A stretch of DNA of 60,838 bases, counting the filler, from Sphacelaria rigidula (taxonomy: Eukaryota): NCBI GenBank assembly GCA_964200075.2. It is 7 parts of 7 records of this genome, joined end to end, with 100 filler letters (N's around TTAATTAATTAA, not from the genome) between each part and the next. Parts side by side here need not be neighbours in the genome. Positions count along the whole stretch, not along the records: positions 1 to 8,606 come from CAXNAA020010616.1; 6 more parts are not named here. The stretch is one strand, 5' to 3'. Below, piece after piece: positions 1 to 60,838 of this stretch. Position numbers and translations under genes: made by a program. The notes beneath the pieces are model-generated. The model had not been told where the DNA came from, made no database searches, and was given only the letters and a program-made list of their open reading frames with translations. Every line of letters begins with the position of its first letter. The stretch's first letter is position 1.

Positions 1-89
1 ATAAAGCCTAGGGATTGATTCGTCACGAGTTGACTCATCATACTAAAACCAAGTAATTTTCAGAGGAATCATCAGTTGTCCGACCCTTG
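1..89. mobile_element. Truncated end of a MITE with TIR CAAGGGTCGGAC (family of 11797-12058)
   Basis: The reverse complement of 1-89 matches 11797-11885 (CAAGGGTCGGAC...GAATCAATCCYTAGGCTTT). Confidence 0.6.
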
Positions 90-417
90 CAACAAAGCAC
101 ACATCACCCTCACGAGTGGGACAAAAGTGTGACTGAAGAGCTACAAGTTAGAAGGCGTCGGTGACGCTAGCAATTGAAACAAGATCTGAACACTTCCGTA
201 CACATTGCTACAGGAATAAAGCGCAGGCAAGGCGAATCGAGTCTTCTCCGTGTCGCAAGGCACATGATATCATTATACGTGCGCCTAGTAGAACTGCATA
301 GGTGGAACATGAGTCAGTCCCACATGAAATAACTGTGTTTAAATGCACGCGACAATATCACGCCATCATTTGGTGAGTCATGCAAAACGCAAAACCCACA
401 CGCAAGCACATGAATAC

Positions 418-2199
418 CTGACTTTTCGCACTTGATGCTGGCCACTTGCCAACAACGTCCATCAGAAGGCTTCCCACCTCCGCGCTTGCCTTGGCTCGCG
501 CGGCGGCCCTATTTGCTACGCCCGCCGCCGCCGCCACCGCCGCCTGCGGGGGCAACCGACGGAGTTTCGTGTCTACACTATTCAACACCGGACTAGAAGC
601 CACCCCACGGGTTCCACCCGCCACTCCGGCAGTACTCGCGCTCGTGCCCCGTCCTGCCGGATGCTCCTCGCCATTGACCTTTGCATCGGACAGGTTTTTC
701 CTTGCATCTCCGCCCTCCTCTGCGACCTGCATGGTCGCCTCTGGTATCTTGGGGCCGCCGTCCTGAGGGTCGTTGCCGCCAAGCCACTCACCGAGGGTAC
801 CCGCGTCCTGGTGATTTTGTTCTCCGACAATGAGAGGTCGTGCTCGAGGGCGGGGAGTCAAATCGCGCCTGCGGTATCTCAAAACCGACGCGCTGTTGCT
901 ACGACGGCGCGCCTCGGCGGAGGTCAAGCTTCTACGACCAACCCCGAGCCTGGAGTTGCGCGACGGCGTTCGACCGGCCACCAATGAAGTCGCCGCGAAA
1001 GACTTTCGGGCGGACGGGGGACGACGGGGTGCTGGGGTGGAGGGTGCAAAGGAGGCGTGCCCAACCTCATCATGCTCACTCAGACGATCGCGCCTGGGGT
1101 TGTCGTTGTCGTGCCAATCGGACCCGTCGGCTCTTCTTTTCTCGTAAGGGGACTCACCTCGCTCAGGCCCGAGGTCCGTTGGATGGAGCTGCGCCGCACC
1201 AGTGACTTCACCTTGTCCGGAGCCCTCCTCCGAGCGCACGCTGCGGGATACAGCGCCAAACGCCGAGCCACACATGCCGGGTGACTGCGATGGGCGTAAT
1301 GATGGCCTCATCGCGCGGGGCCCACGTCTCATAGAAGGCACGACGTCGAGTATACTCGGCCGCCCCCCGTTGTTCACGCCGTGCCCCACGGTTGTTTGCG
1401 GCGGTTTTGCCATGTGTGCAGTTAGATGCTCACGCGCCAGCTGGAGAAAGGGGTTCGATGCTAATATCAGCTCAACGTCCCACTTACTTGCTGAAGACGG
1501 GGTATTGAGCAGACGGGCCTCCTGCTCGGTGCTAAGGATGGGTAGAGACTCGTTCACCGGGTGTGACTCGGGATTCGCCAAGAATTTCATAACATCTTGC
1601 TTCTTATCGTACCCAACTTCTTTGAGGATGGCTCCAAATTCCTCCATGCCTGCTCTGGGATCTACGTTTTTCATGTCTACTTCCTCTACCCCAGGCCGGA
1701 TCATTCCAAGAGTTGGAGCAGGTACTGTTGCTGGTATTGGTGTGTCAGTGGGTGTCGGTGCCCGTGCTGGTACATCAGTGCCAACAGCGTCATCAGTGCT
1801 TGCACCAACAACACCAACAACACCACGACCAGCACAAGCGTCACGACCAGCACTGGCCGGAGCAGTCCCGCCTTGTGAAGCACCGCCATCTGGATCAGCC
1901 TCCTCCATGGCAACATCGTCCTCCTCACCGCCAGCGAATGCTCGAGACGCGTTGTCGCCAACATTTTGCCCTGTCGCAGAGCCTGTGGTTACCACAGCGG
2001 TCGGGCAGTCTGAGGACTCTGCACTGTCTTTTTCTGGCTGAGCCACGGAGGCAACAGCATCCGCGACAGCGGCGGGCACGGACGCGGATGTCATCTCGAA
2101 GGAAGGCGCTGATTCACCGCCTGAAGCTTCGGCATATTGCTCTTCATCGATCTCTGCATCCTCGTCACGCGAGGGTGCATCAGCAGGTACCACCGGTTC
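418..2199 (-). CDS. Exon C of the acidic/disordered gene (EPVVPADAPS...SSAKSQ); gene probably continues beyond the contig
   Basis: Acceptor TTTCCTGTCGGCAG| at 2200 and donor CAG|GTATTC at 417. 1782 bp, phase 0-0, inside the 669-aa ORF. Confidence 0.65.
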
Positions 2200-2555
2200 C
2201 TGCCGACAGGAAAGCGAGATGAGAACGAAAGTGAAGGAGATAGTCAGGAGCGAATACACGAAAATAAATACGGGCATGGGACTGGCACGCCTACACAGGG
2301 AAACGGAACACATTTGGCTTATACTATTCCAGGGGGCAACTCTCCTGAAAAACACGCTGGACATCAAGGAAACACCGGCGAATCGAGCTACGGTGGGTTA
2401 ATCAGGTCAAGCAAGCATAAGGAACGATATTATCGAAAGGCAGGGTATGATCAAGTGATTTACACATGGGTTATGTGTACGTGCGGTGCCACCAAATCCA
2501 AGGTCCAAACCTATTGTACTGTCGAATCCGTCCAGTATACACGAAGTACCAACTA

Positions 2556-3105
2556 CAGTAGTGGGCGGTCTAACTATCATTTTGAGGCATTTTGGTATTT
2601 CTTCGTAGTTGGCGATTTTCTTAGGCTCTTTCTGCTTGCCACTGCTTATCACATTGGGGATCTGAAGATATTTTTATCAGCTCCACATTCCAGGGGGAAA
2701 ACATCATCTGTACTCGATATTGAGTGACTTACCGGCTGACCTGACATCGGGGGTCCTGTGACGTTGCAGCCCAAATTCTTACTCTTCGGTGTTTTAGGTC
2801 GATTGAGCCTGTCCCGATCATATTTTTCAAAAGATGTACAGTTTCATTTCTTTTTTAATTCTGCCTACTCATTGCACTAGAGCCAAAAAACTGTGCTTCA
2901 CGGCCAATACCACCCTCCTGATGAACGGGGTATTTACTTGTTTCGCCCGATAACACCCACTAGCACTGACTTGGGCACTGTGTTTTGAGGATGATCTGTT
3001 CTTTGTACCAAAATATACCGACGCTAGCAATTTCGAATTCTATCGAAGAATAGTACGAGAGCAAAACTCCAAAACCCCGCTGAATAGTTGGACCGCCCAC
3101 TACTG
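2556..3105. mobile_element. 550-bp Tc1/mariner-like MITE, TIR CAGTAGTGGGCGGTCTAACTAT, TA TSD (intronic)
   Basis: TIRs at both ends, flanked by TA. A homologous full copy lies at 13880-14428. Confidence 0.88.
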
Positions 3106-3161
3106 TATGCAAAATTGAAGAAGCATGACCAGTACATATTGCAATCCAAATCGACACCCAC

Positions 3162-3869
3162 CTCCTCCGACGAATCAATGAGGTCAATTACAGCCTCCCC
3201 GCCACTGTAGCCGCCGGTACCAGCCGCGGCATCGTCACCGTCAACCTCATGCCCTTCACTTTCCTCCTCCTCCTCCTCTTCGTCATCATGGTTGTTGTAG
3301 TCATCATCAACCACGTCTTCTTCACCCTCCTCCATCTCATCTTGCTTGTCTTGAAGCATCTCATCCTCGTTCTCTTCATCGATTTCGGCCTCATTGTCTT
3401 CGTCAGATCCGTCTTCCTGGCTAAACTCCTCGTCACCCTCAACCATGTGATGCCCACCCGATGTGGCTTGCGCCTCCCTATCAACCTCCTCCTCATCCTC
3501 TTGATCCCTCCCGTCCTCCCCCTCTTCATAGTCAACCACCCCGTGCCCCTCTCGTCGCTGAAATTGTTCCTCCTCGCTAGCCCCGTGCTCATCGTCTTGG
3601 AGGTGAGGAATAGCTGCCGATTGGCTGTCCTGCAGTTGTGCGCCTTCCATTTCGTTCACATCGTCGTCTGACCTTGCGGAAACGTTTGCCAGCTCATCGG
3701 GTTCGTTTACAACTTGACCTTCTTCCACGTCAGTGTCGGGTTCGTCGCCGTCCCCCGAATCGACGATGGAAGCCGGCGCCGAGCCTTGCCCCGTGTCCAT
3801 TTCCTCATTATTTATAGGGTCACCTCCGTTGTCATCTCCGCCATCACCTTCACCGGCCTCGGCCTCCTC
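3162..3869 (-). CDS. Exon B of the acidic low-complexity gene (EEAEAGEG...IDLIDSSEE)
   Basis: Acceptor CTCTCGTAG| at 3870 and donor GAG|GTGGGT at 3161. 708 bp, phase 0-0, D/E-rich like exons A and C. Confidence 0.65.
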
Positions 3870-6112
3870 CTACGAGAGCGACGATACGAGTCATGGCGAG
3901 GGTAAAGCAGGACGAGTGTAACCTTTCGAACTCAGCAGAAAACCGGCATAAGTTAAAGCGTAAAACGCTGGTAGCATAGACCTATGTAGGTATTCCGAGG
4001 ATTTTGACATTCACTAGCAGTGGGGCCATAATATAAGTGTGGTGCGCTGAAGTCAGAATTAATCTTTTGCTTCGATGTTTTTCCCACTTCTGCTCTTTTG
4101 GTCGAACAGTCACCACAGATGGAACTAGGAACAGCACATGCAAGATAGTGAATGTGAGCCTGTACACGTGCGAAAACGACAGTGGACAGCGAACAAAACG
4201 AGGGGAAAATAGCTGCAAGTAACACTGATTTGAATGTTCCAACTAACGCACACGATCGTACACAGGTTGATTGACGCTTTCGAATCGAAATTCACTAATA
4301 AGCAAATACCTTTTGAGGTACCTTCCCAATTATCGAATGTATGGTATCACACTGACTGCTATGGACAATCGAAGACGGTGACATAGCCGGACCTTTGCTC
4401 AAGACGATAGGAGTGGCGCTATGCGCGAAAAAAAGGGTGAAAAGGTACCTCGACCAATCAGCGGTCGTGAAATTGCTTTGGTTTCAAAAATGCGAATTCC
4501 CAATCCATTCTTTACCGAATTTCCACATGCTTCACATTGTAGGCACAGTCATCAGTTCGGGAACCTAACAGAAGAGAAGCATATTTGAAGACGATTTCCA
4601 ATGGGTCGAATTAAACCAAAACCGTGGTATTTCGGTGATGTGGGGTTCTGGCGTCGGATTTTCACTGATATACCCATCAAGGACGCAGAAAACCTCCTAA
4701 CGGTTCTCCTTCCATCTGTCATGAAAAAGCTCCGACCGCTCTCGACCTTGGCAGCTCTTGTTGATACTCCAAAGGATGAATGAATAGTTGAAAACATTTC
4801 AAACTTTCTGCGCCTTCTACCGGCTTCTGAAGGTACCCGCGTGAAGACCCCCGGAAGTCGATACAGAATGCCCAAAATGTAAAAAATAAATAAACTATGC
4901 TCCCCGGCGTAGCCCAACGAGACATTTTGGCGTCGAAATCACCCGAAAAAATCGTTTCAATACTAAAACCAGTAATGAGGAGATTATACCTTCCAAGCTC
5001 CACTGTGTCGCACACAGTCCAAATGTTCATATCATTTCTTGTAGTTAGACGCTGATCATTAGCACACAGACGCTCTGGGGCAGTTCAGAACTTCTCAAGC
5101 GTGGGGTTTTCTATTTGTTTTTTTCGTCGGATTTCGGAGGTCCAAGGATGGCATGATATACCCCAGGACCTTGGAACCTCCAACAACCGGCTGACATAAA
5201 CAAACAACATTCCCTATAAGTTTTGAAATGCTCCATAGTGTATGTGTGCAAACTTTGCGGATGAGTAAACTTGGGTCGAAAGCGTGAACCAGCGTGTAAG
5301 ACGTGTCTTTTAAAATGATCACTGATATATAATGTGGAGAGTAGCTGTCATGTATTGACAACGAAATGCTTTACAAACAGGCACCGAGCCCGCCACTTTT
5401 ATTTTTACCCTGCTACTGGACGAGAAGTTCTCCGCCGATTCGAAACCAATTCGACGCAATCACGTACAAATAAAGCCGTCGCGTGTGGGGACCCCTGGAT
5501 TTGACGACATTGTTTCACATGTCCAGATGGTCTCGTCGCCGGGCTTCACGACCCCAAGATGGGCTAGCCCTGATTGAAAGAGGGTGCACCTTACAACAGT
5601 AAAAAAACGAAACAACAGAGCAGTAACGCCAGGGGGTGGCACCATGTTTTATCGCGTCGCCATAGCTGCTACTATGCGCACTCTCTGGACTATCCTTGGA
5701 GTGATCTACGAGTCGGGGGCGATGGTGTCAAAAACCTGCGCTGCTTCGAATAACAACAGGCGCGGTGATACCGCCCTCAGGAAACATGTCGAATATCGAT
5801 AGCCTCTACGAAGCGCCAACACGGGAAAAACAGTGGACTCAGAGGGCCCGAAATGCGACAGATCAGAGTTAGATCTGTGAAAATCTGGCAACCCAACCAT
5901 TTTAGCCTAACGGGGATTGATGACCTCAAAACATACGGTGTGTTCATACTTGAGGGTGACGTTCGCACATAGAGGGGAGCTGCTCAGCCACAGCAACGGT
6001 CGTTACCGGTGTCGAAGATCAGCTATCGATGCTGTTCCAGAAATGATCTCGTGCTCAAAGGGGGAACTATTGCCGTCGTTCACTTGATACTCTTATCGCT
6101 TCACCCATGTAC

Positions 6113-6924
6113 AGTAGCAACGGAGGAAGAGAGCCAGCACCATGATGGGCAGCAGTGAAGAGCGCCAGTGCGCCGGTAGAGGGGCTACTTGCGGGGCATG
6201 AGCAACTCCAACGAGAGCCGATTGCGAAGCAATATCACACGAGGGGACCAGATGCAGAAGCACAGCAACTTCGTCGAGGCAGCTAGTGCTGAGATGCTCA
6301 CGGAGGAGGTGTAGGAAGAGCAGTTCAAACTTTTGACGAAAGATGGGGTGGAAAGCGACGTTGAGAAAAATAAGCAAAATCGTAATCGTTCAGCGGCGAG
6401 CATGAGGTGAGCAGGGGCGCATGAGGCAAGCCAAGAGAATGCACCATCAGCTAGCGGCGAAAACGAGGTGGGGACGACAGTTTAGAAAACCACCAGTGGT
6501 GCGAGCTCAGTACCTGAGGTAACCGCCGGTACTGAGCATATTCCACGGGTGATTTTCTACACTGGGCCCCAACTCATTTTCGTCGCTGACCGACGATGCA
6601 TCCTCTGGATCTACTCCATGCGCTCCCACCCACCTCATATCGCTGCTCACCGATTGCACGTTTACTTCATTTTCCTCAACGTCCCTCTCCACCCTGTCCT
6701 CTCCCTCAGTTATACCTGCTTTCCTGCACGTCATCCATAAGCATCTCAGCACCAATTGCCTCGATGACATATGGTGCTTCTGCGTCCAGTCCCCTGGTGT
6801 GATATTGCATCGCAATTGGCTCTCGCTCGTGCTGCTCATGCCCGGCAAGTAGCCCCTTCACCGGCGCCGCTGGCGCCCCTCGGTGCTGCTCATCGTTGTG
6901 CCGACCCTCTTTCTGTACTGCGAC
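6113..6924. repeat. Long imperfect inverted repeat (~400-bp arms, 13-nt loop), intronic
   Basis: GCTCAGTACC(6505-6514)-loop-GGTACTGAGC(6528-6537). The arms align throughout, e.g. GGGGCTACTTGC.GGGCATGAGCA...GCAATATCACAC.AGGGGAC on both strands. Confidence 0.9.
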
Positions 6925-6936
6925 TTCCTGGCTTAC

Positions 6937-8606
6937 CATCAAAACGTCTTGAGCTCCTTGCACACCAGAGGCGATGCCAGCTCCTTCCTCCGCGGGCGGG
7001 GCAACATCAACCGGGGCAAGGTCGGGGGAAGGAGGGGTGTTGCCGTCAACGTTCTCCATACCCATATCCATGGCTGCGTCATCACTATCCAAAGGGAAAC
7101 TATACTGCGAAATGAGCGCAGGGGCTCCCGGCGCGCCAGTATCTTCTATTTGGGGCTGCGGCGCAACATCGGCGGCGGCGGCGACCGCGGCGGGTCCTGC
7201 TCCGTTGTTCGCGGTGATAGGTTCTGCTTCGCTGTCGGCCGCGGCAACTTCTGCTTCGGTATCCGCGGACATGGGCTCCGCCTCGCTGTCAGCTGCGGCA
7301 GGCCCTGCTTCACTGCTATGTGTAGCGGGTCCTGCTTCGTTGGAGGCGGCGGCGTGCCCTGCTTCGCTGCCAGCTGCGGTGGGTTCAGCTTCGTTGTCCA
7401 CAGACATGGGTTCTGCTTCGTTGGCGACGGTAGAGGGTGCTGCTTCGCTATCAGCTGAGGCGGGTTCCTCTTCGTTATGCGCAGACATGGGCTCTGCTTC
7501 ACTTTCAGCTACGGCGAATTCCGCTTCGTTGTCCGCGGACACGGGCTCTTCGGGTTCTGATTCGTCCCCGGCGGCAGCGGGCCCCGCTTCGCTGTAAGCT
7601 TCGGCGGGTACCGCCTCGTTGCCCGCGGACATGGCTGCTTCGTCCCTGACGGCAGCGGGCCCCGCTTCGCTATAAGCTGCAGCGGGTACCGTCTCGTTGC
7701 CCGCGGACACAGACTTTGCTCCGCCGTCAGCTGCAGCGGCTTCTGCTTCGTTGACGGCGGCTGCAGGCTCCGCTTCGCTGTCAGCCGCGGTGGGTTCCGC
7801 TTCGTTGTTCGCGGCAGCGGGTTCTGCTTCGCTGTCAGCTGCGGCGGGTTCCACTTCGTTATCCGCAGACACGAGCTCTGCTTCTTTATCCCCAGCAGCG
7901 GGCCATGCTTCGCCGTCAGCCACGTCAGCTGCTGCGGATTCAATTTCGCTGCCTTGGTCATTTTCCGGCACCCCCTCATCCTGACCGTCCTTTTCATCTT
8001 CATCGTCCACCTCTTCTTCCTCGACAACCTCCATGCTTCCTTCACCCGGCTCGTCATCACCGTCGTCACTCCCCCCATCAGCACCGCCACTGTTGCCCCC
8101 ACTGTCGCCACTTCCAGGACCGTCAGCACCCTGACCTTCTCGATCCTCATCTCCAGAACCACCCCCCCCTCCGGTGCCCTTACCCTTACCATCGGCCGTG
8201 GTCTCTGAGTTGTCCTCACTCGGCTGACCAGATTGCCCGTCCATGCCGCCGGAGTGGTGACCTCCTGCAGGTGCCTCGCCATCTTCCTGAGGCCCAACAC
8301 TCACGTCGTCTTCAGAGGCTGTATCAACGTTCGCCATCACTGATGGCCGAGGGGGACGTGCCGCCTTGCCGGTCACAGCGCCAGCTTCCTGCTCCATCAC
8401 TTCACCACCCAAGTCCACGTCAGAATCTTCAGCCATTTCAACGTCGCGTGGAGGTGACGTGGCCTCAGGCTGTGGGTGACCTGCAGGTGCCTCGCCATCT
8501 TCCTGAGGCTCAACACTCGCGTCGTCTTCAGAGGCTGTATCAACGTTCGCCATCACTGATGGCCGAGGGGGACGTGCCGCCTTGCCGGTCACAGCGCCAG
8601 CTTCCT
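6937..8606 (-). CDS. Exon A (5'-truncated) of a large acidic, low-complexity protein of unknown function
   Basis: Open frame from the contig end, rich in E/D/A/G. Strong donor ATG|GTAAGC at 6936, phase 0, compatible with exon B. Confidence 0.6.
7180..7900 (-). repeat. Coding 27-bp minisatellite (9-aa unit ~AADSEAEPA)
   Basis: Repeated GCTTCG(C/T)TGTC...GCGG units; the translation repeats xADSEAEPx/xADNEAEPx. Boundaries approximate. Confidence 0.8.
8266..8606 (-). repeat. Coding 216-bp (72-aa period) tandem duplication at the contig end
   Basis: 8266-8390 is nearly identical to 8480-8606 (AVTGKAARPPRPSVMANVDTASEDD...DGEAPAG). Confidence 0.9.
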
Positions 8607-8706
8607 NNNNNNNNNNNNNNNNNNNNNNNNNNNNNNNNNNNNNNNNNNNNTTAATTAATTAANNNNNNNNNNNNNNNNNNNNNNNNNNNNNNNNNNNNNN
8701 NNNNNN
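8607..8706. other. Artificial contig linker (N44-TTAATTAATTAA-N44)
   Basis: Identical 100-bp spacer with six-frame stops. It recurs at 17313-17412, 26019-26118, 34724-34823, 43429-43528 and 52134-52233, and the flanking contigs are all 8605-8606 bp (size-sorted). Confidence 0.98.
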
Positions 8707-13879: not shown

Positions 13880-14428
13880 CAGTAGTGGGCGGTCTAACTA
13901 TTCATTTTGAGGCATTTTGTTATTTTTTCATAATTGGCGATTTTCTTGGGCTCTTTTTGCTTGCGACTGCTCATCACATTGGGGATCTGAAGATATTTGT
14001 ATCCACTCCACATTCCAAGAAAAAAATATCATCTGTACTCAATATTGAGTGACTTACGGGCTGACCGGTCATCGGGGGTCCTTCGACGTTTCAGCCCAGA
14101 TTCTTACTCTTCGGTATTTTCGGTCGATCGAGCCTGTCCCGATCATATTTCCAAAAAATGAACAGTTTTATTTCTCTGAAATTCTGCCTACTCCTTGCAC
14201 CAGAGCCGAAAAACTGTGTTTCACGGTCAATAACACCCTCCTAATGAACGGGGTATTTACTCGTTTCGCCCGATAACACCAACTAGCACTGACTTGAGCA
14301 CTATCTTTCAAGAGTGATATGTTTCTTGTACCAAAATCTACCGACGCCAGCAATTCCGAGCTCTATCGGAGAGTAGCACGCGAGGAAAACCCCCAAACCC
14401 CGCTGAATAGTTAGACCGCCCACTACTG
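13880..14428. mobile_element. 549-bp Tc1/mariner-like MITE (second copy), in an RBBP5 intron
   Basis: Perfect TIR CAGTAGTGGGCGGTCTAACTATTCA with TA TSD; colinear with 2556-3105. Confidence 0.9.
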
Positions 14429-14475
14429 TACCTCATCAACATCGACCTCCCGGTCTGAACACAATTGTCTACCTA

Positions 14476-16985: not shown

Positions 16986-17412
16986 CTAGCATATATGCAA
17001 ATACGGGGAAACGGGACCGGGGACGGGGCGGGGCGAGGTGGCGGGCAGAGGGTATACTCCTTTACACTAATTTGTTGCTTGCGTTAGTCATTTGATCATT
17101 GAACATGCATCTCTTTCGAGACGGAGCACCGTTCCTACTCCCAATAGAGGCATCTGTAACATCTGGGCGCTCATGACGTTTCTTCCATACATCGCGTACA
17201 CAAAGGCCTTTACATATATCGGGGGGGGGGGGGGATGTCTTCATGTTTTGCCTGCCTTCGTCTGATCAATCGTTGATTCACCCCGCGTCCCCGGGAATTC
17301 CGAGCCGTTTTTNNNNNNNNNNNNNNNNNNNNNNNNNNNNNNNNNNNNNNNNNNNNTTAATTAATTAANNNNNNNNNNNNNNNNNNNNNNNNNNNNNNNN
17401 NNNNNNNNNNNN

Positions 17413-24817: not shown

Positions 24818-26483
24818 GGCACAGGGATGTCGAGAAAAAACCCCAGAAAGTTACCTGTAGAGAGATTTGAAGTTTCCGCAAAAATTTAAATAATTCTTCA
24901 ACTCTGTGAAAACAAAGAAATGCAGGGGCATCCCTAGCCTATATGTGTGTTCTTGTGTGGAGGAGATCCTGGTAGAATTCCGGCCAATAATTCCAGAAAT
25001 TTGGCGAAGCATCCAACTTTTCGGGTGGCACGGCTACGCTCGTTTAATCCAAGTGATGCAGTTGATTCGAGCTATGGAGGTCGCGAGTTCAACTCCGACG
25101 GATTGCTTTTTTTCGTTCCGTCGGTTAGGTGATACATTATGTAGTACGTTGTTTTCATTCAGCGGTGGTCCCGTGTGTTACCATGTTGGTCTTCAGGTCA
25201 CACCGATAAACTCAAGTTGGGCTGATTTGGTAAACTTGGTAAGTTATCGTGTGACCTGCAAATGCGGGATATACAGCAGTCCGCACACACACGCACACAC
25301 CATAGACTACAGACAGTAGACGCTACACACAGATTCACACATATGGAGGCAAAGAAGGGTGCGGGATCTGGGGCGAAGGGCGGGGAGATGGAGGGGGAGA
25401 AGATTGAAGCTTGAAGCTTCAACAGGAGGAAGGATAAAAATAAGAGTAGTGGAAGCTGAAAGAGGCACGCCGATACCATATTTTTTTCAAGGTACCGGCG
25501 GCGAGGGTGGCGGGGTTTGGTCGATCTGTCCAAGTTATTCATTTTGTGGGAGGAAATCGTTTGTTCAGTATGCGAAGGCCATGGCGAATTCCACAGCAAG
25601 GCGTGACTGTTGATACTCGAAGTATGCACATGTCTCTCCATGGATCATGTGGGATTTTGTATTGGTTGAGACGAGAAACACAACACATGTCAAAAACATC
25701 GCCGAGAAATGTATGCGAAACATGAGATACGCGACAGGGATGTGCGGTAGGGGCGTTGTCTTCGACAAGGGGGGCAGAAAAAGGGAAGGGGGCGCAGAAG
25801 AGCAAAACAAAAAGCGCAGCAAAGCGAAAAAAACGAGCACATAAAAGCAAGAGAGCGCAGAGAACGACATTTGTTTTTCGATCAAAAAAGTGCGGTCGAT
25901 TGTTTTACCACGTTGTTAACGCGGCACTGCTCAGGCCACGTTGAACAGTGTTTTCGTGAGATTGAGAGTAGATGATACGATTGAGAGTGGCTTTGATCAT
26001 TCGCTTTAAGTGAGTCATNNNNNNNNNNNNNNNNNNNNNNNNNNNNNNNNNNNNNNNNNNNNTTAATTAATTAANNNNNNNNNNNNNNNNNNNNNNNNNN
26101 NNNNNNNNNNNNNNNNNNCAATCAGGCAGAAGAAATCGTGAATTTGGTGATTTCGAGTCGTGATGATTTGTCCTAACCGTGGAAACCTGTAACTGGCGGA
26201 AGGAAAATCAACTATTTTTTCAGTGTCTTTGGTACCCCTGGTAGTGGTGGGCGCGCCGGCTTCGCATCGTTTCTGGGCTGCCGTTACATCACTTCCAAAC
26301 CCCCCAGAATCAAGGAGTGTCAATACATGCCTTAGAGGCGTACGAGATATGTCCTGTAGCCGTGCCCAGAGAACGGAGGCCAAGACGATCTCGGTTTGAG
26401 GGACGCTTTTCACGTCAAAGCTTGCCGTTTCGCCGTCTACAACAACAGACTGACCAATGTCTGCGCATAGACTGCCTGCTTAA

Positions 26484-34723: not shown

Positions 34724-35063
34724 NNNNNNNNNNNNNNNNNNNNNNNNNNNNNNNNNNNNNNNNNNNNTTAATTAATTAANNNNNNNNNNNNNNNNNNNNN
34801 NNNNNNNNNNNNNNNNNNNNNNNGGCAAGAATAGACTACGGGATTTCTCCGCACATCGATGCTCTGGCATATGAAAAAATTGGCACATGCTGGTAAGATC
34901 AAGGACGCCAGTCTCTCGAGAGTTTGGTAATCGCCGAGCGGGGACACACAAAGGGCACGGGCGAGGAGCTTCCTCTCTGTCTTTGCTTCTCTTTCTGGTG
35001 ATATCGTCATCGACACGCGTGTACACCGCATTTCGTTGGGTGCACCTAGCCAGAGTTGCTTAA

Positions 35064-36421: not shown

Positions 36422-36540
36422 ATATACATATGTGCACATGTATCATTTCACATTTCTCACCACTTTTGCCGAGTTTTCTCTCGCGGCAAGGCATCTTATC
36501 CCGCCTTTTTTTTGCAATAACAGGGGATTCTGTGAACTGG

Positions 36541-36849
36541 GGTTGATTAATGAAACGAGGATCGAGGAGGTTGGCCAGTATGCGACAAAAAACCGAGAAA
36601 AGTACCGTCCGCGAGTGCCTTCGATCATTTTCTTTGGGGGGGGGCGTACTCATTTATTACTTGCCTTTGTCGTTTGACTATTGACTTTTCGAGACGGGGC
36701 GTTGTCAATGGTCAAACGACTAAGGCAAGCAACGAATGAGTACGCCCCCCCCCCCGCGAAAATGATTGAAGGTACTTGCGGACGGCACTTCCCTCGAGTT
36801 TTTGTCGCATACTGGCTAGCCTCCTCAAACCTCATTTCATTGATCAACC
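36541..36849. repeat. Inverted repeat (~145-bp arms) made of two facing copies of a dispersed element end (GTCAATGGTCAAA...GAGTACGCCCCCC)
   Basis: The arms are complementary around an 18-nt spacer. Single copies occur at ~17070-17103, 43332-43384 and 52068-52121. Confidence 0.8.
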
Positions 36850-39332
36850 TCATTCCATTTTTCAAATTGGTTGATGTCTCCGGCTATTCCAGATCCGGTA
36901 TTGAATTTCTGTGACAGAAACACGAGCAGAACGTTTCGAGAACTTTTCGAAAAACAAACAGAACTCCTCAAGAACCGCTCAAAAGATGACCCCATTAACT
37001 GGAGTACAGGGTGGTCACTCAGCACAAGACAACGCTGCAGTGGTATATGAAGTGTAGAGTAGTACACTGACCACGATATAAAGCAGATCTGCAGTGTGCG
37101 GAACCATTCACAGCAATGTTTTTTTCAGAATATGAAGACTCACCGCGAGGGCGGGTCACGTGCAAAAGTATGTGCTGGCCCTTTTGGGACGGGGTCTCGA
37201 AGGCGATCAATGGGGCTGCTTAAAAGTTATTTGTCTCGAGTCCGTACTACACAGTCGGCCGTACTACACAGTCGGATCATGTTGCTGGTGAAGCTGCTGT
37301 ATACACTCATTTTTGTCGTTGCATCTTCTACGTGCTTACCGTTTTCCTTGAACTGTGCGATCATTTTTAAAATAGACGTTCCGAGTCATGCGAAGGGGAT
37401 TTGTACATGCGTTCGAGATGTTCATCATCGAGAGACTCTCGAAGTTGATAGATGATGAAATGATTAAGGCCGAGCATTTCAGATGCATTTGAAGAAGTAT
37501 GTGCTGACCCTTGCGGACGGGGCCTCGAAGACGATCAATGGGGCTGGTTAAAAATTAGAACTGTATTCAAATGCAAAAACTTGTAACCCAGGTCTGCACG
37601 CAGGTTGAGAATTGCAGCGGGAGTGGTAGTGGTCGTTAGTCCAACCAGGTCCAAGGTCTGTGTAATGCTGCCGACAAGATGCAACAACGGAGCACAACAC
37701 CTACACACCTGGCCCTGAAAAAACACGCACAGACACGCACCACTCACACGCATCGTTCAAGTGATACCTCATTATCCACACACAACAGCCTTTGTTTAAC
37801 GGAAACCCGTCCAGTATTCGATGAAAGACGCAAATTCAAAAACTTGGAACCCAGACGTGCGTGCGTGGATCTGGGCTTCGATCTTAACATAACTGCTTGT
37901 CGATAGAACTCATCACTGTTCGTTGTGGTGGCATCACTTCTCCGCAAGTGATTTTTTCAAAAGTGATGGGGGCACTTTTGATACGACCCTCGTCTTCACT
38001 TCGACCGCATGTTGGGCTTGAGCTTGGGCGAGGCCAGCGCGCCAGTCTGTCTGTTTTTCTGCACGGTTAGTGATCTCTAGCGGCTTTTTTTCGGTAGGTA
38101 TGACCGAACGCGATTATCGGTAATCATGATCAAACGCGATTGAACGCGGTGAGTGACTTGGGAAGATTTATGGGTGTTCCGGACTGCTGTTCTTGAGCCT
38201 GCCTGTAGCAGGGCGACGTACACAGTATATCTTTCAATTTTCTACAAAATGATATTTTCTTCTTCGCGCGTTCACATATTCACATATTTGTGGCCTATGG
38301 ATATTCGAGCGCGTATGGGGCATGGCCGACCTACCACGTGTGGAGGGGTTAGTGGTGAAATCGCTCACGCGTAGTGTGTCTACTGCCGTGAGCCCTGGTA
38401 TGAACTATAGTCCCGTGGTTTTCATGCTTTATATCCGCAGGTGTTATACGGGGTTAAAAACACGCCGTCCCATATTTTCTCGTCGGTGTATATGTGTATT
38501 TAATTGTTTCTCTTTGCACAACCCAATTAAACCTTGTGGCGACGTGCCCAAACGCCGGTAGCGTCTGCGTGTCGCTCACGATCGAGCAAACAGACACACT
38601 CTTCGTTGCAGACCTTGTTTGTCGCGACAGTCTCTCTGCATTGCTGTGTTGCGTCGGGGAGTAGGGTCTCCGGTCGAGTGAACACGTCTCCGGTCGTGAA
38701 GTGATGCCACCATAACGACCAGTGATGAGTCTCATCAACAAAAAGTTATGCTTAGATCGGGGCACAGATCTGCGCACAGGTGGAAATTGCGGCAGTTCTG
38801 GAAGCAGCGTTATCCCGGAAACTCTGTAGTGCTGCGGACAAGACCAACCAGGTAGCACAGCGCCGATACATCGAGCCACGAAAACCGACGCATAGACGCC
38901 CACATCCCACGCGCCTTTTTCAAGCGCTAGCTCATCTTCTACGCAAGACAGTCTTTGTTTGAGGGAACGCCGTCCAGTATTTCATTAGGGGCGGTTGCGT
39001 GCGTTTCAAATAGCAACCGAAAACGTAGTGTTGCCGACTATTTCGGTATACAACAACTCTAACACTCTCTCATGTTTTTACCCTTCACGCCGTAGCCTGA
39101 GCTACTGGCAATAGCGATGCTGCTGATACTGCTGCTGTTGGTTCTTCTTCTCGTGCGGAAGGCGGTCCGCGTTTCGACCTGCGACAATACCCATACCCCC
39201 TTGCGCGTGATTGCCGCCCTCGTTGAAGTCGCTGGTCTGTTCGCGTGCTGTTTTACCGGTTCTGTATCACTTGTTTCTCACCCTAGCATACTCGATTAGA
39301 ACGGTGCGTAATTTCTCGTGATGATGAAGTTA

Positions 39333-39633
39333 TTAGACCGCGAGGTTAGTCTTCTGTTGAATCGGCATCAATTTCGAGTGAGAAAAAGTATGCATGATCG
39401 AGAAAGACTAATCTCGCGGTCTAAGGGTTAACCGTTAGAACGCGAGGGCAGTCCATCTGGATTGTGCATATATATTTTCAAGTGAAATGGATGTCGATTC
39501 AACAGATGAACTACTCTCGCCGTCTAGGGGTTAACCCTTAGACCGCGAGGGTAGTCTCATCTGGGTCATGCGTACTTTTTTCAAGTGAAATTGATGCCAA
39601 TTCAACAGATGACCTACTCTCGCTGCCTCAGGG
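39333..39633. mobile_element. Three abutting 99-bp piggyBac-like MITEs separated by single TTAA sites
   Basis: Units 39333-39427 (inverted), 39432-39530 and 39535-39633, with TTAA at 39428, 39531 and 39634. Confidence 0.85.
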
Positions 39634-43325: not shown

Positions 43326-43864
43326 ACGATAGGGGGGGGGGGCGTACTCATTTGTTGCTTGCCTTAGTCATTTGACCATTGACCACCGATCCGATGGGAG
43401 TCGGGTGGGGAGGGGGGGGGGGTGTCGGNNNNNNNNNNNNNNNNNNNNNNNNNNNNNNNNNNNNNNNNNNNNTTAATTAATTAANNNNNNNNNNNNNNNN
43501 NNNNNNNNNNNNNNNNNNNNNNNNNNNNCAACTTGGCGCAGTACACGCGCCGCCCTGCTACTGAGAGCTTCGGCCCTAGGTCCACGGGTATCATGGTGTT
43601 GTTTGGAGGGGAATTCGGAAGCTAGTCAGTACCTGGATAGTGGCTGATAAGGGGCCTTCCTCAGCTCGCATATCCATAGAAAAAGTGATATAATATCGCT
43701 TCCAGAGTTGCAAACTTTCTGCACACCACCACAAGTGTACCGTCAGTACAAAACTACACGCCGTTTTCGTTTCCACTGTAGCTCACACACGTCACAGCAC
43801 AGTTGCTGCTGCGGACAGATTCTTTGCACAGCATAATGTTGGCGATTCCTGTGCTAATATTAAC

Positions 43865-49697: not shown

Positions 49698-50865
49698 CAC
49701 GGTTGTGTTCTGAAGGTACGGGTACGTTCTGTAGGGTATGAAATTCCTTACAGAACTTACAGAACTGTCGGGTCCCGGTATGAAAGTCTTATAGAGACTA
49801 CAGAACTGTTGGGTACCGGTATGAAAGTTTTACAGAAATTACAGAACTTGTCGGGTACGGTATGGGAGGCTTACAGGAAACCGGTACCGGCAATCGGGTA
49901 ACTCTTTTAGGGCATACCCGCCGCTCGGTTTAGGGTAGTTTTTGTGCAGAACTCACAGAAACTGTCGGGTATGGTATGGAAGTTGCACAGAAAACCGTAC
50001 CCGCAACCGGGTATCCTTTTAAGAGCATACCCGTGCCCTCCGGTGACGGTACGGGAGGTTTACAGAACTCACAGAACTATCGGGTAGGGGTATGAAGGTC
50101 TTACAGAGATTACAGAACTGTCGGGTACCGGTACGGAAATCTTCCAGACCTTACAGAACTGTCGGGTACGGTAAATACCCGGCAAATACCCCGGGTATAC
50201 AGAAAACCGTATCCTATAGAGCACGACCTTGGTATTATCATCATTACCCCTGTGGTGGCATATTCCGTCTGATCCCAAACTAAATAACTTTTCAACATTG
50301 AATTGTATTGTTGGTATGCAGTTTTGAATTAAGGAGTTAGGCGGGTTGATCGATGGGAGGTACATGTTCAGGTCATGAGGTTGTGTTTAGATTGAACCAA
50401 TATCCGTACCTCCTCGAGGTATATACCTGTGCTCATACCTGCAATCGGGTATATCTATATCGGTGTACCCTTACCCCGGGTAGGGGTATGGGGAGCTTAC
50501 GGAGCTCACAGAACTGTCGTGTACAGGTACTGGATGAAAGTCGTACAGAAGTTACAGAACTTGTCGGGAACGTTATGGGAGGCTTACAGAAAACCGGTTC
50601 CGGCAATCGGGTATTTCTCCAAGAGCATACCCGCACTCCGGGTACGGGTAAACATTCTGCACAGAACTCACGGAACTGTCGGGTGAGGGTATGAAGGTTG
50701 CACAGAAAACCGTACCCGCAATCCGGTATCTTATCAAAACCGTACCCGTGCCCCCCGGCAACGATATGGAAGTCTTACAGAGATTACAGAACTGTCAGGT
50801 ACGGTAAATACCTGGGATAATACCCCGGTTATACAGAAAACCATACCCGACAGAACACAACCTTA
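49698..50865. mobile_element. Intronic hAT-like composite element with ACAGAACT/GGGTA tandem arrays
   Basis: TIR CACGGTTGTGTTCTG / CAGAACACAACCTTA and 8-bp TSD CAACTCTC/CAACTTTC. Two internal repeat blocks (49715-50231, 50470-50865). Confidence 0.7.
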
Positions 50866-51430: not shown

Positions 51431-54400
51431 CGTATAAAATGATTTTTTTCCTCGTGTGTCTGGGAAACTGTCGATAGCCTTGGTGTTGATGACATTGGTG
51501 TGGGTTGACTTGGGACCCCCCCCCTTGGAAAACGTGTGATGTTTCATTGTTATAGATTACCCTGTGTTCAGGGCGCTTCCAGTTCCAATTTATATTGGTG
51601 TTTGTGACGTTGCGGTCTCGGATCTCGGCGATGAAACCGGAGTGGTCTCGGCTGGGCCCATCTACTCTGAAATGAAGGTCTGCCGCACGCACCCGGGGTA
51701 TGGTGATGTGTCGTTGCACGGAGGCGTGAAGTTGTACTGAAGCATCAATCGTGTTCGTGTTATCACCGTCGCCCTACATGCGCAAGGGCCCGCAGCAAGC
51801 CGGCGCTGAGACGCGAGCCGTTTCTCGGCAAATTCCCGCTAGGTCGTCCCACACCAGTCCCAGCCACTACCATTCCTTTTTTGAATGACACGTACACGAC
51901 TTCCTTCCCGATATGCCATAGACTAAAAGTTGCAAACTGCTGTTTGTCGGGCAGACAGGAGTCAGTGTCAAGCGTCAAGCAGCTGCACGCTGAGCCGAGG
52001 GGCCCCATATCGGGAAATGACGGCGCCACGACCCCCCAGGTCGCCCAAACCTCATTCTGGGGCCGTAGGGGGGGAGGGTGTACTCATGATCATGCATGCC
52101 ATAGTCATCAGACCATTGACCTCGCATCCCTATNNNNNNNNNNNNNNNNNNNNNNNNNNNNNNNNNNNNNNNNNNNNTTAATTAATTAANNNNNNNNNNN
52201 NNNNNNNNNNNNNNNNNNNNNNNNNNNNNNNNNCACTTCAACCCCATATTTTGTATCAACCCCATTTTCTAGGATTCACTGTTTCAAGCTATTCAAAACA
52301 TATCAATTTACAGATTTTGTATCAAAATAATTTGGGATAATGAAAAACATTGGAATTCTCAAAGAAAAACAAGGATTTGTGCAGGGCTTTGCCGACAAGC
52401 CCACACAGGGCCGCAAATTCAACCCTGGGGAAAACACAACCACAACGCTTTGACAGGTACAGATTTGCCTTTTCACTCTCAGGGGTTTTGACAAAGACTG
52501 GGGAGGACCCTGTACGGACCCTGCACAGTGCACCCCACAGGGTGCTATCTGTCCACGTGTGAGGTCAGCAGAGTCACAATGTTTCGACCAGCTGCCTGCA
52601 CATACTGAAAATAATATGTAAACCATGCGATTTACACCAACGTACATCTTCGACCAAACGCTATGTTTTGGCACCAATGTCACGATATTTGCTTCGGTGG
52701 CGGTCCGCCATGTGCTGCTCTGTTCTGTGGGGATGTGTACAAAAGACAACCTCACGTATCATGAGCGAATGTCCTTTCACCCCTTAGCTTGTAGAGGATG
52801 AGTTCACCGATGAAACGCAGCCGTCTTGTGACAGACGTTTTCGAGACAGAACCCAAGGGATGCGCGACGCTGCTGCTCATGGTATCCAAATTTCCGTACT
52901 TTCTCGTTCTAGCACAATGTGTCAGGCACGCCTTTCACTGCAGATGCGTTGGTGTGTGGCGGTCACAACTGCTGCTGTTCGTGTTCCTGTCTGGTTATCT
53001 TCGCAATGGTGGTAAACGTGGGGTGGAAGCTCGGGGGTGTGCGCTTCCCGAGTGGCAGCTGAACACTAGTGTACCAAGAGTTTCCACCCACTGATCTGGA
53101 GCGAGTTATCCGGAAGAACAATATCATCTCAATACCGAGCACTCACAGGCTTGAATATATGTACCATGTTTATAGTACATCTTATGTGAGCCAGGTCGTT
53201 GTTTCTAGGTGACGCATGTATTTTTGATGGATATGATTCGCCTGATTACGACCCACTCCTTACACATGTAGCGTTCGTGATCCATTTTCCCGAAATATAG
53301 CACCCCAAATCGGGCCCCATTCCCACCCATAACAGTGTCTATAGCGCACATACAATATACCCCACCATAAAGCATGGGCATGGTAATGGCAGAAAAAACG
53401 GTCGAGATGCGGCAGTGGTATGTATCGAACTCACGTGAACCCGGCGAGTTGAACATCAAGCTACCCGATTTGATGTTGACGAACGGCACCCTTTCGTACT
53501 TTCGTAAATATCAAGCAAAACCTCCATAAACAAAAGCATAATTGAATGAGTGATTTTTTCTGAACATGATTTGGTTTGTCTTATTGGTAGGCACACGACC
53601 ACGGAGTTTTTATGAACTATGTCCATTGATATGCGAGGTATACACCATCATTCCAGCATCCGTGCCTGAAGCCAAAGCGTCGTACCTAAGCTCAGGTGTG
53701 TGGACATACAATCGTAAGCAGTGTTTGAGATTCGTATTCAGCAAAAGTTACTGAGAATTTATCCCGTGGCCCTATTGATATATAACTTGGGGGGCAAGAG
53801 GATGAATTATATTCAACAATCTTTGCCGCATCTCGAATCCCCTCCGCTGATTATGGCGCAGTGTGCGGAACTTGCACAGTTGAGGCTATTCGCAATAAGT
53901 TATCTTTTTGTCCAATTTTTTTCCTGATGAATCAGCGGGCAAAGTGAGGGTTCATTTCGAGTTTTTTCTCCTGTATATATTCCAAATCTACCGGTGTGTA
54001 TCGGATTTGTGGAGCAGATGGAGCTGTTCAAAATGAATCATTTTTTTGTCCAATTCAATTTGAATTGGGCAAAAAATTGATTTAGTTTGAACAGCTTGAT
54101 CTGCTCCACAAATCCCGTACATGTGTATGGGACTTGTGTAGCAGATGAAGCTGTTCAAGATACTGTAGATCATTTTTTTGCCCAATTTTATTGAGCCAAA
54201 AAAGGATTTATTTCGAATAGCTCCTTCTGCTGTCCGAAATAATGTCTCTTTTTGCCCGATTGCTCAATTTGAAATCGGGCAAAAAGAGGCATTATTTCGG
54301 ACAGCTTCTCTATAAAAACAACTTTATAGATTTTGTCACAAAATAATTGGGAATTTTCAAAGTGGGAGTGCCTCTTCACAGGGTTGGTTACAGGGCTTGA

Positions 54401-55208: not shown

Positions 55209-55316
55209 TAGTTACAGAGACGCCAGTCATATGTATAAATCCTCCGCACATCCTACGATTCCACATCATGTAGATAGTACAATACAGTGTGGTGGTGCAG
55301 TCTTGCTCAGTATTGA

Positions 55317-55735
55317 CAGTAGATTTTCAAAAATGGGGCTGAAAAAAGAATGAGGTTCAACTCAAAAGCCGTGCTTTCCCTGACCTAAATTCATGAGAAA
55401 TGACTTCCGTACGGACGAGCTCATCCCTCCCGACCCCCCGTAAATTATTTCGGAGATTTCTAGCCTTCCGTTCCCCCACAGGGTATCTACGATAGCACGA
55501 TTTTTGAGCCAAAAAACTTCCTTTTTCCACCCCGAAATCGAGGCAAAATTGTGCTTTCGCACATACCCTTTGGGGGAACGGAAGGCTACGAACCCCCCGA
55601 AATAGGTTTTGGGAGATCGGGAAGGATGATGTCGTCCGTATGAAAGTCGTTTCTCATGAATTTAGGTCAGTGAAAGCACGGCTTTTGAGTTGAACCTCAT
55701 TTGTTTTTCGACCCTATTTTCGAAAATCCACTGTT
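55317..55735. mobile_element. Fold-back element (~190-bp arms, ~30-nt loop)
   Basis: ACAGTAGATTTTC...AATGAGGTTCAACTCAAAAGCCGTGCTTTC pairs with its reverse complement at 55660-55735. A similar end lies at 52255-52285. Confidence 0.8.
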
Positions 55736-58500: not shown

Positions 58501-59079
58501 TGACGCTATGAAACACGTGAGTTCCTAATCAACAGTCTGCACATGGATGAGCCTACTGTGTGATTGTTCTTGGTGGATAGCTATAGGTCGTACGCTGTGC
58601 CCACGTGGGACCTTGGGTTAGCTGGACCCAATGGCATCTCCTGGTACTCGTACTGAGAGATTTCAGCCAGTGCATTAGCTATCCTACCATGATAGCATCA
58701 ACCCTGTGCGTCTCATACAGGCCCACATGCTCGCTGCACACAAAGAATATCCTTTGAAGGGTAGGTCGAGTAGAGTATACTCAATACTCAGTATTTTTTA
58801 AGAGTCATACTTTTAGTACTCGGAGTTTGAGTAGAGTTTCTGAGGTCGTACTTAACCTACTCAATGAGTCGAGGAGAGAATTTGAGATCATACGCAGTCT
58901 ACTCGAAATATGAGTAGAGTATTGAGGCCATATACTCAAGTGATACTCTATACCAAGTATTACTGAGAGTGCTTACTCAAAATTCGAGTAGAGTACTTGA
59001 GGCCGTACTCGATCCACTCAAACTCTGAGTGGAGTACTTGAGACCATACTCAACCTACTCAAAATTTGAGTAGAGTATT

Positions 59080-59337
59080 GAGTGATGCTGCGATAGGGTC
59101 AGCACTTTTACGGCCTGAGATTAAAATTGTTAGGAACCCTTCATCTCATCCAAAACACTACTTTTGAGATAGGTGAGAGTATGCCAGGGTTTTTCTTCCA
59201 ATTTGCTAGGGATATCCCGAATGAATTTGCAAACGGGGATATCCTCGCCTATATTCTTGAGTAGTTCCTAATTTTAGGAAGCCCTGAATCAGGTCGGTTT
59301 TGGCCCCAAAAGTGCAGACCCTATCGCAGCATTACTC
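59080..59337. mobile_element. 258-bp Sola-like MITE nested in the 41-bp array (TSD TATT)
   Basis: GAGTGATGCTGCGATAGGGTC...GACCCTATCGCAGCATTACTC. Removing the element and one TATT restores the host unit GAGTAGAGTATTTGAGA. Confidence 0.85.
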
Positions 59338-59764
59338 TATTTGAGATCGTAATCGACCTCCTCAACATTTGAGTAGAGTACTGGAGGTCGTACTCAACGT
59401 ACTCAAAATTTGAGTAGCGTATTTGAGGTCGTACTCAACGTACTCAAAATTTCAGTAGGGTATCTGAGGCCGGGTCCGATGTACCGAGAATCTATAACTT
59501 CAACGCCTTCCTTCCTCTGGCGACTGTTGCGATGTTCCCCCATCTTGCACTGTTTCCACCTCTGACTCTCCCATGGAAGAGTCACATATGTGGCCAGTAG
59601 AGTCGCTCATTTTCATACTACCTACTCGACTACTCTTCCATTTGATTAGTCGATGATGATGAGTAGCGCTCTGTTGTACCGAAAGTGATATCGAAGGCGT
59701 TGCGAGGTATCGAGTATGAACTGCCGTGGGTGGGGACTGGTGAGATGGGGCGCTGGGGCAGGTA

Positions 59765-60093
59765 CACACGCGACCATTTGGCTGCACCCCAGAATGTCTC
59801 CAGAGGGATGTGCGGTCCTTCAGGGGGAAAACAAGCCTCCGGAGGCCTTCCATCCCTGTAGAGGAGACCAAACTCTACAGACCCGGAGGGCCGCGCACTC
59901 CTTCGGAGGAATTTGGGGTTACGCGCGGTCCTCCGGAGGCAAGAATAAGCCTCCGGACGCGTTCAACCCCTCTGGAAGGAACCAACAAATTTTCTCTGGA
60001 GGGCCTCGCACCCCTCCGGAGGCGTTTACTCTGGAGGCTCGAAAAGTGTACCCACCCGGAGGAAGTTTGGAGGTAGCCAAATGGCCGCGTGTG
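59765..60093. mobile_element. 329-bp TA-flanked MITE with internal CCTCCGGAGG palindromes
   Basis: TA|CACACGCGACCATTTGGCT ... AGCCAAATGGCCGCGTGTG|TA. Confidence 0.8.
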
Positions 60094-60838
60094 TAGGTTC
60101 GTTCACGTGCACGCTTTTTTCATATTTTTTAGGGTCATCATTCGCTCATACTTCTTGTTGGTATACGCCGCCCATCTGATTGATGGCCGTCGTTCGTCCA
60201 TGCATTTAACATAGTCTGTGAAATGACGTCGCGACGTCGCCGACTGTCAGGGGTACTCAGCATACCCAAGGGTTACTCTATACTCAAGTACTACTGAGAG
60301 TGCTACTCGATATTCGAGTAGAGTACTTGAGGTGGTACTCGATCTACTCAGAAGTTTAGTAGAGTATTTGAGACGATACTCAACCTGCTCAAAATTTGAA
60401 TGGAGTATTTGAGGCCGTACTCGATCAACTCAAAAAATGAGTATTTGAGACTATACTCAACCTACTCAAACACCGAGTAGAGTATTTGAGCCCGTACTCG
60501 ACGTACTCAAACACCGAGTAGAGTATTGAAGTCATGCTCAAGTGATACTCTGTACTCGAATTTTACTGAGAGTGCTTACTCAATATTTGAGTAAAGTATG
60601 TGAGGTCGTACTCGACGTACTCAAAATTTTATTCGAGCATTTGAGGCCGTACTCGACGTACTCAAAATTTGAGTAGAGTATTTGAGACCATACTCAACCT
60701 ACTCAAACACCGAGTAGAGTAAATACTTGAGTGTTTTACTCGAGTATTCAAAAGAATATACTCTACTCTACCTACCTATTGTGACGCTAGCAGGTCTGCT
60801 AGTACTGCAGCGTCTGAATGCTGTTGAGGGACTCCCCA

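Follow-up and report, generated by a model that had tools for sequence, protein, structure and literature searches.

The locus studied here raises the question of how a long hairpin made of coding-like sequence came to lie inside an intron of a single-copy gene of the brown alga Sphacelaria rigidula, and whether it is the remnant of a past event, an inserted element or a functional RNA structure. The hairpin belongs to the first of seven contigs of assembly GCA_964200075.2 that were joined end to end with N spacers to form the window, as we call the whole stretch of 60,838 nt that was analysed; this contig (G000:C10616) occupies positions 1-8606. The spacers (8607-8706, 17313-17412, 26019-26118, 34724-34823, 43429-43528 and 52134-52233) each carry a short AT core, and the repeats or apparent "inverted repeats" at these places are joining artefacts. 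The explanation that we prefer, with a probability of roughly 55%, is that the hairpin is the relic of an old single-copy inverted duplication that removed a coding segment of its host gene from the mRNA.

On the minus strand, which is the sense strand of the host gene, the hairpin consists of a coding-like 5' arm (6528..6925), a terminal loop of 13 nt closed by the innermost stem (6515..6527), and a 3' arm that is the inverted copy of the first (6113..6514). Local alignment of 6925-6530 (minus) with 6113-6512 (plus) gives 300 identical columns out of 403 (74%), with 10 gap columns, 61 transitions and 32 transversions. At a total of 813 nt the foldback is an extended hairpin, purine-skewed and of 55% GC. 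When both strands were folded, as the preliminary description had advised, the minimum free energy was -547 kcal/mol for the gene strand (z -31.0) and -501.2 kcal/mol for the opposite strand (z -28.0), neither value being equalled in 20 shuffles; a strand gap this extreme arose in one of 40 swap-simulations. On the gene strand 84% of the columns are paired, the longest perfect run is 13 bp, the longest run of Watson-Crick and G-U pairs together is 22, and 47 of the 383 windows of 21 nt have at most one unpaired column. The mismatches are evenly distributed along the stem, with no protected duplex seen in their distribution, and the 3' side does not pair further into exon A (score 46 vs a shuffle mean of 45). 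Alignment and folding thus confirm what had first been described as a fold-back of about 810 nt with arms of about 400 bp and a 13-nt loop. An assembly artefact was considered and rejected: X3, which comes from a separate study and differs from the window elsewhere, has a single DNA contig (4627-8293) that crosses the entire hairpin with one difference in 3667 nt, and contigs of X4 cover both arms in two pieces.

The host gene is read on the minus strand. The 3' part of exon A (6937..8606) is an open frame, acidic and with 27-nt repeats, covered by RNA-type contigs over 6936-8293; exon B (3162..3869) has 236 codons and is likewise acidic; and exon C (418..2199), with 594 codons, is the portion of the gene that is conserved among other brown algae. 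Exon C has 16 other matches among the representatives, with E values up to 0.001, the last of which resembles chance, and one match in the genome, so the host is without a gene family. One cluster of its homologues includes a 1679-aa protein of Undaria pinnatifida that has three RanBP2-type zinc fingers, a tail that is FG-rich by eye, and named matches to Nup153 proteins covering 3-7% of its length. From this orthologue we infer that the host is a Nup153-like protein, its own exons downstream of position 418 not being located. The acidic N-terminal part is much shorter in the Undaria model. The 5' end of the host gene probably lies on an upstream contig (G000:C24887), tied to ours by a repeat at the contig ends, which has a 1027-aa open frame with a SAP domain and contains the likely gene start.

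Several further features of this setting were observed. Exon A (8264-8606 plus G000:C24887:2651-5731) is apparently very large, with about 1000 codons on C24887 and 554 here, and apparently split in the assembly at a tandem duplication; besides the SAP domain, its N-terminal part shows further SAP-like repeats by eye, and the Undaria gene model is without this SAP-bearing part. Within exon A, 7198-7947 is an array of 27-nt (9-codon), Ala/Glu-rich repeats. The second intron holds a high-copy repeat (2577-3107) that is 87-88% identical to 13902-14430 on the next contig. Contig C18381 was considered as the host's 3' end but not adopted as such, the RNA continuation after 418 being absent from the 6000 of its 6729 bases examined. 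The minus strand of this contig (L095) has a 1138-aa open frame with repeated units bearing C-x2-C zinc-finger motifs, which match the Undaria RanBP2 fingers, and, by eye, EF-hand-like stretches; it is probably a second nucleoporin-like gene.

The splicing of the host determines where the hairpin stands in it. In X5 and X6, runs that belong to two different studies, contigs connect 6937 with 3869 and 3162 with 2199 at GT-AG ends, and these contigs are regarded as RNA only because their joints fall at GT-AG; contig depth was not taken as an expression level, and hairpin parts without RNA-contig cover prove nothing. Since the first of these joints, whose verification had been proposed at the outset, is present in contigs of two runs, the whole hairpin lies inside a GT-AG intron of 3067 nt (3870..6936, minus strand). 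The 5' splice site in use (6928..6936, minus strand) is GTAAGC in phase 0 with CAG directly after it, and the stem starts at 6925, 11 nt past the exon end, in agreement with the earlier placement of the hairpin just after the GTAAGC donor at 6936. This donor is the first outside the stem and, with a mean unpaired probability of 0.65, is the least paired of six candidates, the other five, in or at the stem, having values of 0.00-0.42.

The closeness of stem and exon end gives some ground to a reading in which the structure regulates its own host, either through small RNAs of the stem that silence the host or its family, or through a switch between donor use and read-through. A low-depth X5 contig (6715-6958) does pass the donor unspliced, and small RNAs of the 3' arm would find a 74% match, with wobbles in addition, in the unspliced pre-mRNA. 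However, low-depth contigs occur in the other intron too, and the switch, which the preliminary description had suggested, fits poorly with a used donor outside the stem and with read-through that meets a stop at 6708, ahead of the conserved exon C. Silencing is opposed by the single-copy state of the host: with the arm spliced out, a search of exons A (both contigs), B and C, the exons down to position 418, found no complementary site, the best match being 16 of 21 nt, and the earlier suggestion that the hairpin could target this gene family does not survive. We consider self-regulation in either form very improbable. The end of the unspliced X5 contig coincides with position 6715, where a cryptic GT donor begins; no joint is seen there, and the coincidence may be chance.

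In another reading the hairpin is unrelated to host coding; it would be a foreign fragment or rare mobile element, placed head-to-head in an intron that already existed, and its open read-through from exon A would be due to chance. Long fold-backs are indeed common in this genome. A sample of 80 stretches of 10 kb, taken in even steps through the contig list, was combined with the window (860,238 bases), and it holds, in about 852 kb, 25 other fold-backs with arms of at least 200 nt, all of which are repeat-derived: 22 have copies within the sample, and for the remaining three a search of the whole genome gave 81, 7 and 77 matches. One of the 25 (L043:6789-7650, on G000:C4050) is an 862-nt hairpin of similar size to ours, in which two units of a dispersed, coding-like 430-nt repeat stand head-to-head; this repeat has about 40 loci, the other loci listed appearing as single units. 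Against this reading, the same genome search that returned 7 to 81 matches for the three control fold-backs gave no copy of the hairpin elsewhere, the arms matching only themselves (one candidate scored), and protein searches of the genome with the arms gave no second copy, although the assembly is fragmented and a missed copy is therefore possible. No target-site duplication is present in the 30-nt flanks, where the longest shared word is 5 nt and lies away from the ends; age could have erased one.

These searches extend to the whole genome the first impression of a fold-back with neither target-site duplication nor other copy. The arms thus match no high-copy fold-back transposon, which would have spoken against a hairpin-RNA locus, and the search for paralogous targets proposed earlier returned only self-matches. 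Long hairpins are ordinary in S. rigidula, and a single-copy one is unusual. Fold-back transposons and MITE-like palindromes, which are very common in this genome, share with our hairpin a long palindrome with a tiny loop; however, the MITE-like palindromes are multi-copy, mostly of 39-54% GC and without purine skew, whereas the hairpin is single-copy and coding-like, and it fails the copy and target-site tests for this class. Elsewhere in the window we observed further MITE-like palindromes, 280-420 nt long, of which the genome sample contains copies (55316-55734, 36538-36852 and 39340-39623), and two families of degenerate 41-nt tandem repeats (49707-50808 and 58817-60757).

Special attention was given to the coding ancestry of the arms. 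Past the donor, the 5' arm continues exon A in frame, as had been noted from the start, with 76 codons open before two 1-nt gaps relative to the other arm. The 72 codons past the donor score 0.29 bits per codon under the host codon model vs -0.17 for dinucleotide shuffles (1/2000, p=0.0005); towards the loop, a further 56 codons reach 0.30 once the frame is shifted (p=0.001 for the best of three frames). Models built from other exons give a smaller signal, still above that of all 794 host-intron windows, and the signal is exceeded by 0.4% of random genome windows under the host-gene model and by 2.5% under the other-gene model. The host frame is the best-scoring of the three for the 5' arm, whose base composition, purine-rich and with acidic codons, is that of exon B and not that of the intron. 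A foreign insert would not be expected to share both the acidic-codon composition of the adjoining exons and exactly the frame of the host, and the coding signal in that frame supports the original view, in which coding-like sequence of the host itself was duplicated in inverse orientation. In favour of an insert, 5.7% of shuffles also have an open 72-codon frame, and brown-algal intron positions are mostly ancient, according to the part of the Phaeoexplorer preprint relied on here. The control hairpin L043, the only one of 25 with a comparably high coding likeness (0.16 and 0.18 vs 0.24 and 0.10 here), equals ours in this respect and so leaves room for a captured foreign coding fragment. On all of this evidence, we regard an origin by insertion as unlikely.

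Neither arm is intact as coding sequence any longer: two 1-nt gaps disrupt the 5' arm, and stops and frame breaks disrupt the 3' arm, whose plus-strand reading is a diverged peptide in which 4 of the 116 aligned codons are stops. With respect to protein, the two arms have diverged in a nearly neutral way, 70 of 116 residues being identical vs 67.1 expected. The diverged peptide of the second arm is as first described; the synonymous differences that had been cited with it carry no weight as evidence, codons with synonymous differences only numbering 13 of 116 vs 13.1 expected by permutation. Second-position differences are slightly few (20 vs 26.9, p about 0.03), and stops number 4 vs 1.9 expected in the 3' arm (p=0.11) and 0 vs up to 2.5 in the 5' arm (p=0.06); these statistics are not strong enough to place the loss of coding in time. 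A raw dN/dS of 0.43 between the arms was dropped because it disregards transition bias. In indel load the hairpin resembles a repeat-derived one of equal identity (8 vs 9 gap openings).

Relatives of the arm peptide were also sought. The 5' arm scores slightly above all shuffles against exon C (84 vs a maximum of 78) and against contig C24887 (90 vs a maximum of 79.5), which we put down to a codon make-up that they probably share. No relative was found among 950 and 169 candidates or in the Undaria protein, these being weak negatives for a fast-evolving region; no Pfam family matched the peptide, and no orthologous loci were found in metagenomes. One weak match of the peptide in its own genome (E 0.0075) contains a stop and was judged chance. 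As no relative was found to carry the segment as an exon, its exon ancestry rests on codon statistics.

Under the inverted-duplication reading, a stretch of about 400 nt in the host's acidic coding region, or about 130 codons, would have been copied inversely beside itself. In the pre-mRNA, the two copies would pair in the 84%-paired, 400-bp stem and bury the splice sites of the segment, so that the spliceosome would take the free donor at 6936 and leave the segment out of the mRNA; as this loss was in frame and within a length-variable acidic region, it would have been tolerated. Both copies would since have decayed as coding sequence, and the present hairpin is, most likely, a relic in decay from which some Dicer products may arise without a cognate target. 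An open donor outside the stem would be the expectation if an inverted copy buried the splice sites, by analogy with the human alleles discussed below. The segment would then once have been translated from the host gene, and pairing would have caused its loss from the mRNA; in an alternative order of events, it may have been intronic before the inversion.

Two versions of this mechanism are equally likely, namely a donor shift within one long exon and the skipping of a phase-0 exon of its own, beginning at 6927. In the latter, the upstream intron would later have collapsed to 9 nt, of which GTAAGC and CAG at 6928..6936 are possibly the relic. The CAG is followed by a phase-0 GAA codon, resembling the starts of exons B and C, and 61 of 2787 GTRAGN sites in the sample have YAG directly after them. 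The outer flank of the inverted copy (6073..6112, plus strand) is pyrimidine-rich, with 70% C+T; this fraction of 0.70 compares with 0.70 and 0.77 at the real acceptors of the gene and falls, depending on window choice, in the top 1.6-6.7% of intron windows, and the flank may be a copy of the acceptor tract that belonged to the lost exon. Both features hint weakly at a separate exon and were spotted post hoc.

The same origin could also have left a retained structure, in which the stem is kept as an intronic precursor of small RNAs (a long-hairpin siRNA or transitional miRNA) and the excised intron would be diced to 21-nt, AGO-loaded RNAs acting on unrelated, partly matching mRNAs. We hold this to be a possible but minority outcome. 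The excess of G-U wobbles counted in the preliminary description (18 vs 10) is real but weak: G-U-compatible transitions on the transcribed strand number 39:22 (two-sided p=0.040), the only p<0.05 among 34 fold-backs, and they are mostly C-to-U changes in the 5' arm (18:7). Among 22 repeat-derived hairpins with enough transitions there is no over-dispersion (chi2 15.95, 22 df), and this speaks against a strand bias of such size being general; a 64:36 bias in half of the 22 would give such a low chi2 in 0.16% of simulations, assuming them to be transcribed. However, a single p<0.05 in 34 is the chance expectation, and the bias was first noticed in the same data. Transcription-linked C-to-T change affects the non-template strand and would yield a G-U bias of the same sign. 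The bias and the strand difference in folding energy suggest that the RNA fold has been under some selection, for which a pure relic has no need.

The remaining evidence on retention is similarly divided. The 47 windows with at most one unpaired column suit a small-RNA precursor, and the short perfect runs and even mismatches, with no protected duplex, do not; Rfam gave no match other than a chance one (E 0.28). In X4, among the matches listed, the 813-nt hairpin has one difference vs 16 in 1188 nt of the 3' part of the intron (Fisher p=0.002). X3, among the matches listed, is equally invariant in the adjacent non-hairpin intron (one difference over 4627-8293), so the low diversity may be that of a shared haplotype block, and the contrast was set aside as a sign of constraint. 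Small-RNA output is plausible here because Ectocarpus is rich in several-hundred-bp palindromes giving small RNAs (PMC4513859), and its AGO-bound RNAs are enriched for intronic sources, in the portion of the 2026 Ectocarpus AGO paper (PNAS) used here. A fuller version, in which about 130 codons folded themselves out of a nucleoporin-like mRNA, became fixed and were kept as a gene-derived, AGO-loaded small-RNA locus, seems to us doubtful; in it, the fold would remove its own source from the mRNA and the new locus would thereby escape self-silencing.

Inverted copies are known to cause exon loss in alleles of patients, and a fixed, old case would represent a route from coding sequence to intron. 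Should self-excision be true in full, the locus would be an instance, natural and fixed, in which RNA pairing drove the loss of an exon, as well as a gene-derived brown-algal small-RNA locus, arising by a route for which two surveys (Tarver 2015, PMC4513859; Cock 2017) report no case. The prevailing view derives brown-algal miRNAs from "genomic hairpins", themselves of obscure origin, as opposed to pieces of genes. Since the source of our hairpin is gone from the mRNA, searches against current mRNAs would miss such hairpins. It is important to note that this is one locus and that any small-RNA function of it is putative, being read from sequence.

Long imperfect inverted repeats made from gene sequence are known from other small-RNA systems, and plant miRNAs are reportedly born through inverted duplication of their target genes. 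Loci of this kind are recognized by 21-nt siRNAs that depend on Dicer and come from both arms. Our hairpin resembles such loci in being, on the statistical evidence and with no orthologous exon found, a gene-derived long inverted repeat. Drosophila hpRNA loci, as far as the source used describes them (PMC10317233), retain a complementary target gene elsewhere, and plant target-derived miRNAs keep one too, whereas the source of our hairpin has left the mRNA and has no paralogue: neither the second-copy search nor host exons A, B and C gave a complementary target mRNA.

With regard to brown-algal miRNAs, foldbacks have mean lengths of 170 and 183 nt and most loci are intronic and on the host strand (Tarver 2015, PMC4513859; Cock 2017, for the parts of both consulted); our hairpin is likewise intronic, with the gene strand folding better. 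At least 15 nt of a 21-mer are paired in it, as Tarver 2015 asks of a miRNA, although this holds for any long stem and is not diagnostic. Tarver 2015 further asks that miRNA and miRNA* are both expressed, with 2-nt 3' overhangs and at least 66% of reads sharing one 5' end. In the same parts, these surveys give no miRNA locus derived from protein-coding genes, whereas our hairpin is apparently gene-derived; no brown-algal exon-derived hairpin appeared in the limited literature searched. The 813 nt far exceed the mean foldback, and the class of extended palindromes seems to fit better. As far as the two surveys were consulted, both set this class apart from miRNAs, the exclusion in Cock 2017 also being read-based; Tarver 2015 (PMC4513859) describes such "weak candidate miRNA" loci in Ectocarpus, on palindromes of several hundred bp with many small RNAs, 65 of which its supplement (Fig. 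S3) displays. Our hairpin is also a several-hundred-bp palindrome in a brown alga; the Ectocarpus loci are defined by mapped small RNAs, and ours by its predicted fold.

Finally, intragenic inverted duplications cause skipping of human CHM exon 12 (PMC8756506) and MANBA exons 8-10 (PMC6549551). According to the portions of these case reports drawn on here, they share with our locus an inverted exon copy in the downstream intron, a foldable pre-mRNA and an mRNA without the paired segment, which here is the joint of 6937 to 3869 across the stem in X5 and X6. The human alleles are, in the same portions, new, near-identical in their copies and pathogenic, with a normal allele for comparison, whereas our hairpin is common to the runs examined, 26% diverged and in frame, with a 13-nt loop; with no un-inverted allele at hand, causation is inferred here. 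By analogy with these systems, the hairpin may act like an extended-palindrome small-RNA locus, and would have acted on its host gene like an inverted-duplication splice block.
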